Shown here: positions 3,467 through 7,262 of the stretch, one piece after another
Layout of the letters: each line of letters starts with the position of its first letter
Position numbering within the stretch: the stretch's first letter is position 1
Origin: Escherichia coli
GTDB lineage: Bacteria > Pseudomonadota > Gammaproteobacteria > Enterobacterales > Enterobacteriaceae
Strand: one strand, 5' to 3'
NCBI RefSeq assembly: GCF_016026235.1
Contig: NZ_CP065613.1
DNA: 64,000 bases
Made by a program: the position numbers and the translations under genes
Notes under the pieces: generated by a model
The model's input: only the letters and a program-made list of their open reading frames with translations
Database searches by the model: none
What the model was told of the DNA's origin: nothing

Positions 3467-3723
3467 CAGCGCAGCACCTCCTGCACCAGTTTTTCAAACT
3501 TTCCGACTCTGGTTTCCAGCTCTGCCACACAGTCCACCAGCTCATCTACTGCTTTCTGTGCGCGATGCTTCGCCTGCATCAGTTCCCGAAGCGCGGGTAC
3601 CATATCTTTACGGATAGCATCTTTTGTTATGCCCGTTTTTTCGAGTTGTTCAGCATGACGCAGCATTTCCTGCGCGTGTTTACGCAATTGTTCAGGGGTA
3701 AAAGTCATTGTCTGGTTGTTCAA
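3466..3723 (-). CDS. Hypothetical prophage protein (85 aa, predicted helical)
   Basis: ORF 3466..3723 minus strand, translationally coupled to flanking genes. Confidence 0.45.
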   Translation of the reverse strand: MNNQTMTFTPEQLRKHAQEMLRHAEQLEKTGITKDAIRKDMVPALRELMQAKHRAQKAVDELVDCVAELETRVGKFEKLVQEVLR

Positions 3724-4817
3724 AAGAAACGCTCCATCTTACTGCTGTCAGTTCGTTTATTACTGTATCTGCGCGGATTGCCGGGCTTCATGGGAGTGGA
3801 AAGCACCCGTGCACTTTCCTGGTCCACAGGCAGAAAATGTCCGTTATAAAAACGCCGGTAAATCGTTCCCAGAGAACCGTTACGTTGTTTCGTGATATTG
3901 ATTTCTGCGATGCCCCTGGCCTGCGTATCCGGGTTGTACACTTCATCCCTGTAAAGCATCAGAATGATGTCTGCATCCGCCTCTATTTCTCCGGAATTTT
4001 TCAGGTCTGAGTTCATGGGACGTTTATTGGGTCTGGACTCCACACCGCGGGAGAGCTGGCTCAGCGCAATCAACGGAAAACCACCGGATTTTGCCAGGCC
4101 TTTAAGCCCCTTTGAGATTTCACCCACGGCAAGGTCATGACGCCCCGTGGTTCGGGTTTTTATCAGCCCGAGATAATCAACCACCACCAGCGCCGTTTCC
4201 GGATGTTTAATCAGATGGTGTTTCGTTGTTGCGCATATCTCATCAATGGTCAGGTTCGCCTGGTCCACCATCCAGATATTGCGCCCGGTCATCCGCCCCA
4301 CCCCTTGTGAGAAACGCGCCCAGTCTTCATCTTCAAAGTGAGCCACAGATTTCAGGCGTGATACTGGCATCCCTCCAGCCGCAGACACCATACGTTCACC
4401 AATCTGGATGTTCGCCATCTCCATGGTGAACAGAAGCACACCATGCCCCTGCTCAGTCACCTTGTCGATGATGTCCAGCGCAAGTTCGGTTTTCCCCATC
4501 GAAGGACGAGCCGCAATAAATACCAGGTCGCCGGGCTCCATGCCGCCTGTTTTTGCGTCCAGTTCATCAATACCGGTCATCAACGTCCTGGATTTCTCCA
4601 GTCCCTGATTCCGGCATTCAACACGCTCAACCACCTCCGGAAGCACATCATCAATATGTACCGACTGAATAACGCCCTTTTCCGTCGACAATGAGGCCAT
4701 CATGTTCTGTGCATCCTTAAGAGCATCTTCAGCTGCTTCACAGGTATGCGCATTGAGGTAGCCTGAGTTTAACGGACACTCCTTCCTGAAATAGAATGGC
4801 ATCAGAAGGAGCTAATA

Positions 4818-5120
4818 ATGAGCAGAAAAAACCAACGTTACTCTAAAGAGTTCAAAGCCGAAGCTGTCAGAACGGTTCTTGAAAATCAACTTTCGATCAG
4901 TGAAGGCGCTTCCCGATTATCCCTTCCTGAAGGCACTTTAGGACAATGGGTTACCGCCGCCAGAAAAGGGCTCGGTACTCCTGGTTCCCGCACGGTGGCT
5001 GAACTGGAATCTGAAATTCTGCAACTGCGTAAGGCGTTAAATGAAGCTCGCCTTGAGCGAGATATATTAAAAAAAGCAACAGCGTATTTTGCACAGGAGT
5101 CGCTGAAAAATACGCGTTAA
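4818..5120 (+). CDS. IS600 OrfA (HTH transposase N-terminal component)
   Basis: 100-aa ORF MSRKNQRYSKEFKAEAVRTV...; IS3-family orfA. Confidence 0.85.
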   Translation: MSRKNQRYSKEFKAEAVRTVLENQLSISEGASRLSLPEGTLGQWVTAARKGLGTPGSRTVAELESEILQLRKALNEARLERDILKKATAYFAQESLKNTR

Positions 5121-5155
5121 TCGAACAATGGCGACAACAATTTCCCATTGAAGCG

Positions 5156-5974
5156 ATGTGTCAGGTATTTGGTGTATCCAGGAGCGGTTATTACAACTGG
5201 GTACAGCATGAACCCTCAGACAGAAAACAAAGTGATGAGCGGCTAAAACTGGAGATTAAGGTGGCACATATCCGCACTCGCGAAACATATGGAACCCGGC
5301 GGCTCCAGACGGAGCTGGCAGAGAATGGCATCATCGTTGGTCGTGACCGACTGGCACGTCTTCGTAAGGAGCTAAGGCTACGCTGTAAGCAGAAACGCAA
5401 GTTCAGAGCGACTACGAACCCGAACCACAATCTGCCAGTTGCGCCAAATCTGCTGAACCAGACGTTCGCTCCTACAGCACCAAATCAGGTCTGGGTGGCG
5501 GACCTGACGTATGTTGCCACACAGGAGGGATGGTTGTACCTCGCTGGCATCAAAGATGTTTATACGTGCGAAATTGTCGGCTACGCCATGGGAGAGCGCA
5601 TGACAAAAGAGCTGACAGGTAAAGCCCTGTTTATGGCGCTCAGGAGCCAGCGCCCACCTGCCGGGCTAATCCACCACTCTGATCGAGGTTCACAGTACTG
5701 CGCATACGATTACCGGGTCATACAGGAGCAGTCTGGTCTGAAAACATCAATGTCGCGTAAAGGTAACTGTTACGACAACGCTCCGATGGAAAGCTTCTGG
5801 GGAACGCTGAAAAATGAGAGCCTGAGCCACTATCGTTTTAATAACCGGGATGAAGCCATCTCAGTAATACGGGAATACATTGAGATTTTCTACAATCGTC
5901 AGCGTCGTCACTCTCGTCTGGGGAATATCTCCCCGGCAGCCTTCAGGGAAAAATATCATCAGATGGCTGCTTAA
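5156..5974 (+). CDS. IS600 OrfB (DDE integrase-like catalytic component, expressed by -1 frameshift as OrfAB)
   Basis: 272-aa ORF with DDE-type motifs (ADLTYV..., HSDRGSQY..., NAPMESFWGTLK); -1 frame relative to orfA. Confidence 0.85.
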   Translation: MCQVFGVSRSGYYNWVQHEPSDRKQSDERLKLEIKVAHIRTRETYGTRRLQTELAENGIIVGRDRLARLRKELRLRCKQKRKFRATTNPNHNLPVAPNLLNQTFAPTAPNQVWVADLTYVATQEGWLYLAGIKDVYTCEIVGYAMGERMTKELTGKALFMALRSQRPPAGLIHHSDRGSQYCAYDYRVIQEQSGLKTSMSRKGNCYDNAPMESFWGTLKNESLSHYRFNNRDEAISVIREYIEIFYNRQRRHSRLGNISPAAFREKYHQMAA

Positions 5975-6374
5975 AAAAAGAACAAATGGTAGTGTCCGCT
6001 ATTGCCAGTACACCTCACATCGCGTAATTTCTGTAATGCCTCGTTCAGTGTTTTTTCTGCATCGCGCAGTGCGGCATTGCGCCGCAACGCTGCAACATAG
6101 TGCTCCAGTGAAGACTTCACCCAGGTTTTACGCCCGGTATCAGTAATCACCGGGGCAAGTTCTGGCATCTCATTGCACAACAGCACAGGATCAATCACGC
6201 CGGACACACGGGCCTGTCTGCAGATGCCTGTGTAGATATCCCGGTACGGTCGTACAGAAAAAACGTCCGCCGGTAGTGTGGCCAGAATATCCATCACTTC
6301 AGGATCTGCTCCGCGCAGAAAGAACGCGCCGATGACAGCGCCTTCAAGGTCATCGTTACGCCATACTGGAGTTG

Positions 6375-7262
6375 TCATGCAGCCACACCTCTGATACGAG
6401 AACGGTAACTGGGCCAGTTAAACGACAACCAGTTGCGTCCCCCGTCTGTGATCCTGTCGGCAATTCGGGGACTGATGAACGCCCACAACTCTTCCGGTGA
6501 GAGGTTACTGATCAGAATGGTGGGCAAGATACTTTCGTACCTGGCGTTGATAATTTCCTGCAAAATAGCCATTTCAGCCGCGCTGCCAAACTGAACGCCA
6601 ACTTCGTCGATGATCAGCAAATCCATTGACGCATAACGCTCAATAACTTCATCCGCTGTTTTTTCGCTGTCATTCCGCCAGCAATTTTTCACAGCACGGG
6701 TAAGGCGCATCACGTCGGTGATCTCCACACTGGCCAGATAGTTACGGATGATGTGTTTTGCCATAGCCACAGCCAGATGATTTTTTCCGGTACCACAACT
6801 GCCGGTCATAACAAGACTGGTACCGTTCTCCAGCATATCTGGCCAGTTCTCCGCATAGCGGCGACAGGCCGCAAGATTTCTGGCTGCGTCAGGATTAACC
6901 TCCAGATAATTATCAAACTCGCAGTCCCGAAAACGCAGGGCAATTCCGGCGTTATCAGTCAGCTCTTCCGCCTTGATGGACGACAGCTCCATGGTCAAAT
7001 CGTTGGCCTCAGCGATTAAGCAGTCAGGGCAGCATGAAATTTTTTCTCTGTCCTCGCCATTACGATCGCTCCACACCAGTATATGCGTGTGATATTCGCC
7101 ATGTTTTTCGCAATATCCGCGACCTTCACGCATCAGGCAGGAACGATAAGGCCATGGCTTTTCGCCCTTCTGAGCAAATGCAATCTCTGCCCGTAACTCA
7201 TCCATTCGCGCCTGTAGTCTTTTTTGTTGTTCACGCAGGTTAAACGTCATCATCGCTGTCAC
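6375..7262 (-). CDS. Phage DnaC/IstB-like helicase loader (AAA+ ATPase)
   Basis: 295-aa ORF with Walker A GSCGTGKNHL and Walker B LLIIDEVG. Confidence 0.75.
   Translation of the reverse strand: MTAMMTFNLREQQKRLQARMDELRAEIAFAQKGEKPWPYRSCLMREGRGYCEKHGEYHTHILVWSDRNGEDREKISCCPDCLIAEANDLTMELSSIKAEELTDNAGIALRFRDCEFDNYLEVNPDAARNLAACRRYAENWPDMLENGTSLVMTGSCGTGKNHLAVAMAKHIIRNYLASVEITDVMRLTRAVKNCWRNDSEKTADEVIERYASMDLLIIDEVGVQFGSAAEMAILQEIINARYESILPTILISNLSPEELWAFISPRIADRITDGGRNWLSFNWPSYRSRIRGVAA

Follow-up and report, generated by a model that had tools for sequence, protein, structure and literature searches.

A replicative helicase gene interrupted by IS600 in a phiP27-like prophage at yecE of Escherichia coli

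Defective lambdoid prophages riddled with insertion sequence (IS) elements are found in Escherichia coli K-12 and in Shigella; examples are DLP12, Rac and the IS600-flanked, stx-bearing remnant of S. dysenteriae 1. We analyzed a stretch of 64,000 nucleotides from E. coli (assembly GCF_016026235.1, contig NZ_CP065613.1), called the window below, in which a lambdoid prophage adjoining yecE carries a replicative helicase gene interrupted by a copy of IS600. IS600 is among five IS elements with an expansion in Shigella, and it is also expanded in some enteroinvasive E. coli (EIEC) lineages, with genome-wide formation of pseudogenes (PMC7373316). The spread of IS elements in Shigella and EIEC has been linked to bottlenecks (PMC7373316). 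The yecE gene is an integration site associated with the Stx2e phage phiP27 (PMC8065619).

The closest described relative of the interrupted gene is that of phiP27, whose helicase shares 96.8% amino acid identity with the restored protein across all 463 residues. A DnaC-like loader gene adjoins the helicase gene in both. In contrast to phiP27, the helicase gene in the window is interrupted by IS600, and the late regulatory module of the prophage is also different, with a 273-amino acid Q, RusA and one tRNA. The structurally characterized reference is the replicative helicase DnaB of E. coli (PDB 6BBM, 6QEL and 7T22). Its N-terminal domain comprises residues 1-170 and includes a hairpin of two helices (119-148 and 152-169), followed by a linker helix (182-198); residues 135 and 141 are required for the interaction with primase (PMC4705694). 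The N-terminal domain, hairpin, linker and RecA-like domain occur in the same order in the restored prophage protein. However, it is a phage paralogue of much lower identity to DnaB with a weak Pfam match in its N-terminal domain, and its final ~35 residues have no counterpart in DnaB.

The interrupted helicase gene

The helicase gene is on the minus strand, with its start at 6378 and its stop at 3720. Deletion of 4754-6020, which comprises the IS element and one of two flanking CAT triplets, joins 6378-6021 to 4753-3720 and yields one open frame of 463 codons plus stop, without an internal stop. A preliminary description of the locus had placed the gene at 3720-6378 and proposed that such a join would give a continuous DnaB-like frame; those limits are exactly the stop and the start, and the continuous frame was obtained. 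The restored protein has a Pfam DnaB_C match above the cut-off (residues 177-422, E 7.7e-73) and a weak match to the DnaB N-terminal domain (residues 9-86, E 5.5e-5, 23.6 bits with a cut-off of 23). It aligns continuously with solved E. coli DnaB structures over residues 12-430 (E 2.5e-65). The Walker A (ARPSMGKT) and Walker B (VVVDYL) motifs and the arginine-finger context KQRNG align with the DnaB motifs, and the two halves of the gene separately match PHROG 19, 'DnaB-like replicative helicase' (E 3e-15 for the 5' part and 1.1e-93 for the 3' part). Judged by its sequence, the restored gene is a phage DnaB-family replicative helicase. The neighboring initiator and DnaC-like loader genes are consistent with a predicted activity as a hexameric 5'-3' fork helicase. 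A RecA/KaiC-type ATPase that is not a helicase was considered and is ruled out by the Pfam matches and the alignment with DnaB structures.

The preliminary description had the N-terminal and RecA-like domains lying on either side of the IS. This holds for the Pfam matches; structurally, the cut falls inside the N-terminal domain. The triplet that was duplicated lies across codons D120 and A121 of 463, which align with D148 and P149 of E. coli DnaB. Since D120 and A121 align with the turn of the hairpin, it is the N-terminal domain itself that is broken and not the junction between domains. The alignment puts the IS in the hairpin turn, followed ~35 residues later (numbered as in E. coli DnaB) by the linker helix.

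The inserted element, IS600 copy 1, belongs to the IS3 family as judged by its length, TG...CA ends, two open reading frames (ORFs), 3-bp duplication and near-identity to known copies. It is 99.8% identical over 1264 nt to RefSeq elements described as 'IS3-like element IS600 family transposase, programmed frameshift', and shares the same 99.8% identity with the window's two other copies (15821-17084 and 19413-20676). The terminal inverted repeats are imperfect: both read TGAGGT from the outside inward, with further matches along the first 40 nt. The orfB frame is -1 relative to orfA, and RefSeq marks a programmed frameshift in a near-identical copy. The A7G run near the end of orfA is likely the site of the -1 frameshift that would produce the OrfAB transposase. 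The target duplications of copies 1, 2 and 3 are CAT, GTG and AAG, each checked against an uninterrupted homologous site. A literature search on the IS600 target duplication found no paper with all of the terms, and the 3-bp size is read from the three copies in the window.

Several complete genomes, E. coli CFSAN029787 among them, have an empty site, where 1634 bases are homologous to window positions 3600-6500 (2901 - 1267). The CFSAN029787 site aligns with the in silico join without gaps at 98.3% identity, with one CAT at the junction. The intact gene there, annotated 'replicative DNA helicase', has 1392 nt, equal to 463 codons plus stop. Thus the earlier claim that IS600 interrupts the helicase gene with a CAT duplication is borne out by the ends and length of the element, both CAT copies and the gapless empty site. 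The helicase insertion is a simple IS600 insertion in which nothing was deleted, an event already known in kind. An IS-mediated deletion or rearrangement is ruled out, as each junction pair matches one uninterrupted site.

Of the codon differences between the restored gene and the CFSAN029787 allele, 19 are synonymous and 7 non-synonymous; there is neither a stop nor a frameshift. No decay is seen in either half, and the differences are mostly synonymous, which suggests that the gene probably still worked when the element inserted. Over 12.4 kb, contig UGFA01000005.1 of GCA_900449985.1 matches the window at 100% identity. The same helicase/IS600 junctions occur in contigs of three draft assemblies, namely GCA_900449985.1, GCA_001907535.1 and GCA_000805835.1; in the latter two, short contigs lead out of the two halves of the helicase gene and into the ends of IS600. 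Among 5,426 complete E. coli genomes none carried the insertion, and a 140-nt junction probe covered no place in them to at least 80%. Two E. coli records that seemed to cover 100% of the query turned out to combine an intact helicase gene with a nearby IS600, and do not carry this insertion. From these comparisons the helicase insertion is probably evolutionarily recent and confined to a small lineage.

Table 1. Features of the interrupted helicase gene and its surroundings (window coordinates)
Feature	Position	Strand	Description
Helicase, 5' part	6021..6378	-	ATG 6378-6376 to first base of codon 120; globular head and first hairpin helix of the DnaB N-terminal domain
Helicase, 3' part	3720..4753	-	Last two bases of codon 120, codons 121-463 and stop; second hairpin helix, linker helix, RecA-like ATPase domain
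IS600 copy 1	4754..6017	+	1264 bp, ends TGAGGT...ACCTCA, IS3 family
Left target-site duplication copy, CAT	4751..4753	.	3 bp
Right target-site duplication copy, CAT	6018..6020	.	3 bp
IS600 orfA	4818..5120	+	100 amino acids, helix-turn-helix; Pfam HTH_Tnp_1 E 1.3e-20
A7G run near orfA end	5069..5076	+	Read from sequence
IS600 orfB	5156..5974	+	272 amino acids, DDE catalytic domain; Pfam rve 8.8e-26, also rve_3, rve_2, HTH_21
Truncated N-terminal ORF as present	5971..6378	-	135 amino acids: 120 native residues and 15 from the IS600 right end; called on three public contigs
Longest 3'-half ORF	3720..4802	-	360 amino acids: 17 codons inside the IS left end and native residues 121-463
DnaC-like helicase loader	6375..7262	-	Pfam IstB_IS21 1.4e-15; PHROG 50 'DnaC-like helicase loader' E 4.9e-90; stop overlaps helicase start
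O-like replication initiator	7264..8178	-	PHROG 270 'replication initiation protein' E 1.1e-65
85-amino acid ORF	3466-3723	-	Start overlaps helicase stop; frame intact
RusA	3092-3466	-	Frame intact
Q antiterminator	2274-3095	-	273 amino acids; frame intact
SPFH-domain gene cut by IS600 copy 2	15019..17111 (IS 15821-17084)	+	GTG duplication, ~codon 268/276
Tyrosine integrase split by IS600 copy 3	18253..20833 (IS 19413-20676)	+	AAG duplication, ~codon 388/437; abuts yecE

Prophage context and further insertions

The replication module reads on the minus strand in the order initiator, loader and helicase, with the helicase last, and is followed by the 85-amino acid ORF, RusA and Q. The prophage abuts yecE, beyond which lie yecN, cmoA, cmoB and torZ, and the region runs colinear with yecE prophages annotated in E. 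coli. By these features it is a phiP27-like lambdoid prophage at yecE, with its other attachment end located outside the window. The preliminary description regarded the immunity, antitermination and lysis functions as intact. For immunity and antitermination we agree: the frames of the repressor (218 amino acids, helix-turn-helix and S24 peptidase domains), the cro-like protein and Q are all open. For lysis, the holin frame (372-587) is intact, but lysozyme and Rz lie beyond window position 1 and are not visible in the window itself; they are present on the source contig as Rz-like and lysozyme ORFs (L015 15189-16156). No stx genes were seen between Q and holin of the prophage.

The tyrosine integrase was also described as split. 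It is interrupted by IS600 copy 3, and the in silico join restores a 437-amino acid protein that is 96.8% identical to an intact integrase. The break precedes the NVYGAW tyrosine, and by analogy with the tyrosine-recombinase family the stub would lose its catalytic nucleophile. IS600 copy 2 removes the last ~8 codons of a 276-amino acid gene for an SPFH-domain, lipoprotein-like protein. In the window, every IS600 copy is a simple insertion that duplicated 3 bp, and all three can be reversed in silico. Further along the source contig, the large terminase gene is split by an apparent frameshift into overlapping ORFs of 387 and 319 amino acids (L015 18050-20153, ~3.3-5.5 kb past window position 1). 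This frameshift (L015 ~19194-19213) is either a further prophage defect or a sequencing error, for instance in a homopolymer. At the sequence level the prophage is therefore defective, with the helicase and integrase genes split by IS600 and the large terminase gene frameshifted on the source contig. The label 'doubly defective' given to it earlier is right about the helicase and the integrase, and understates the damage, which extends to the SPFH-domain gene and apparently to the large terminase.

Several other observations were made along the prophage. Three head-to-tail 12-nt units (TCTCTG-T/A-A/T-GTA-T/A-T) are found at 7674-7718 inside the O-like initiator gene. They may be candidate origin iterons, by analogy with the lambda-type origin within O. 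A single tRNA gene at 2055-2130 on the minus strand is identified as Met(CAT) by ARAGORN and is 89.7% identical to the gene annotated as tRNA-Ile in related prophages. These have a cluster of four tRNAs (Ile, Arg, Thr and Gly); in the window, the three other tRNAs, a DNA methyltransferase and a short Q are replaced by the 273-amino acid Q and RusA. This module swap is an instance of lambdoid mosaicism. The listed 620-amino acid ORF at 8389-10251 on the minus strand is not a gene. It is antisense to a plus-strand TumE / HVO_A0114 toxin-antitoxin-like pair (9307-9955), and only its 3' part corresponds to the 317-amino acid Ash/Rha-domain gene of the gene callers. A PmrD-like ORF, used as a way past the left edge of the window, is found in tens of thousands of contigs, and its look-up returned unrelated prophages. 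The 475 bases after IS600 copy 2 (17085-17559) have no counterpart in a related E. coli prophage, which carries ORF6N and beta-clamp-domain genes at that place.

IS elements have also inserted outside this prophage. An IS4-like element, ISEc60 (48237-49528, 1292 bp), interrupts the chromosomal motA gene with an 11-bp duplication, GGAAAGTCCCC. It has two indels relative to an intact copy in E. coli FDAARGOS_943, and its transposase ORF is just 255 amino acids long. The loss of this motility gene fits a lineage of the EIEC/Shigella type. In E. coli RMDEC332, the yecE prophage has an IS600 of its own (L004 19261-20524), inserted where the window has an empty site (~14833-14835). This shows that independent IS600 insertions strike the same prophage family.

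Consequences and alternative explanations

We propose that IS600 transposed into the helicase gene by means of its DDE transposase OrfAB, made through a -1 frameshift, and that it duplicated CAT and deleted nothing. The products would be a 135-amino acid N-terminal stub and a 3' remainder that lacks its own start signals. Upstream of the ATG at 4802 the sequence is the complement of the orfA ribosome-binding site, and not a Shine-Dalgarno sequence. A promoter scan found no outward promoter-like site at the IS left end, and promoter and terminator scans of the IS were at chance level. Gene callers place the start of the 3' half at an internal methionine (4703), giving 327 amino acids. The hairpin and N-terminal collar would normally organize the hexamer, as in DnaB, and contain the residues on which the interaction of E. 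coli DnaB with primase depends. The RecA-like part would no longer be translated from the native start. Because the hairpin and collar are broken and the RecA-like part is cut off from the native start, the prophage most likely makes no working helicase, and it would not replicate from its own origin despite intact initiator and DnaC-like loader genes. The IS may also have a polar effect on the downstream rusA and Q. With the helicase and integrase both interrupted, replication and excision would be lost.

We are highly confident that a simple insertion of IS600 into the helicase gene of a phiP27-like lambdoid yecE prophage is, taken as a whole, the best explanation of the locus. Nothing contradicts its anatomy. 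Two points weigh against the predicted loss of function: the DnaC-like loader might recruit the host DnaB and partly rescue replication, and read-through from the early promoter combined with an internal start at Met154/155 (the 327-amino acid ORF) could yield a RecA-domain fragment of putative activity. The anatomy itself could in principle be a product of assembly, in which a copy of IS600 was misplaced into an intact helicase gene. The genome is rich in repeats and contains many near-identical IS600 copies, three of them within the window. However, a perfect 3-bp duplication flanks copy 1, and contigs of independent draft assemblies cross from the helicase halves to the IS600 ends at exactly these junctions. 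We rule out misassembly because the same junctions occur in three assemblies, and give it a negligible probability. A match between 3-bp flanks has a 1/64 probability of arising by chance; chance is rejected as the source of the pattern, since the empty site aligns without gaps and the join restores a frame of 463 codons. It is also conceivable that the split gene still functions, either because the pieces reassemble or because a RecA-domain fragment made by read-through serves as an ATPase or inhibits related incoming phages in a dominant-negative manner. Both halves lack stops and frameshifts, and the 327-360-amino acid ORF spans the entire linker and RecA domain. Yet the absence of start signals described above argues against expression of this ORF, the absence of decay is what a recent insertion is expected to show, and the insertion is limited to the three assemblies. 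We consider a functional split gene very improbable. Equally improbable is a more specific version, in which the 3' half (second hairpin helix, linker and RecA domain), expressed by read-through of the early operon, co-assembles with the helicase of an incoming phiP27-like phage and poisons it. If this were true, the insertion would have turned a replication gene into a factor for superinfection interference and been retained for that.

A different question is whether the insertions were selected. The IS600 copies in the helicase and integrase genes may have been favored because they ground a useful prophage, locking it in place and averting a lethal induction. Its usefulness would lie in immunity, toxin-antitoxin pairs and accessory genes. 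The remark in the preliminary description on how cryptic prophages are retained is an argument of this kind. It agrees with this proposal that two key genes for mobility and replication have been struck, while the repressor, cro-like, Q and holin frames are intact. Several findings point the other way. The third IS600 strikes a non-essential SPFH-domain gene and the large terminase gene is frameshifted as well, and the chromosomal motA in the window is also interrupted by an IS. In Shigella and EIEC, IS elements have expanded across the genome, a process tied to bottlenecks (PMC7373316). In addition, FDAARGOS_943, the complete genome whose backbone comes closest to that of the window (99.9-100% identity), has a yecE prophage (NZ_CP065615.1 748000-790000) that is eroded at other places and in another manner. 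That prophage carries insertions of IS600 (two copies), IS2, ISEc60 and IS1; in it the helicase gene is deleted, the loader and initiator genes are fragmented and the lysozyme gene has an internal stop; its integrase gene is intact. The IS pattern thus looks undirected, and undirected decay driven by IS elements explains the contrast with FDAARGOS_943 no less well than selective retention does. In the window and in the FDAARGOS_943 comparison, we found no evidence for specific selection of the helicase insertion and none that would exclude it. We regard selection for grounding as unlikely. The case is one of routine IS-driven prophage decay in an IS-rich, EIEC-like lineage of E. coli.

Relation to known IS600 insertions and cryptic prophages

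For annotation, the truncated N-terminal ORF (5971-6378) and the 3'-half ORF (3720-4802, or 3720-4703) should be recorded as the halves of one helicase pseudogene and not as two genes, and the prophage should be scored as defective. The helicase insertion can serve as a lineage marker, given its presence in three draft assemblies and in none of the complete genomes. With three IS600 insertions that can be undone in silico, the locus is suitable for asking how many IS hits immobilize a lambdoid prophage. Otherwise it adds to the examples of decay driven by IS600 in genomes of the EIEC/Shigella type and has little importance beyond annotation. The insertion type is already known, and this instance of it is present in public assemblies.

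Compared with the IS600 insertions that create pseudogenes in Shigella and EIEC, the element, the 3-bp duplication and the IS-rich setting (IS600, IS2, IS1 and IS4-like) are alike. There is no difference in kind, and only the target site is distinctive. The cryptic prophages of K-12 and Shigella offer the nearest parallel for the prophage as a whole. Like them, it is a retained lambdoid prophage with several inactivating IS insertions and point defects. It differs from them in being far less eroded within the window, with most of its early and late regulatory frames still open.

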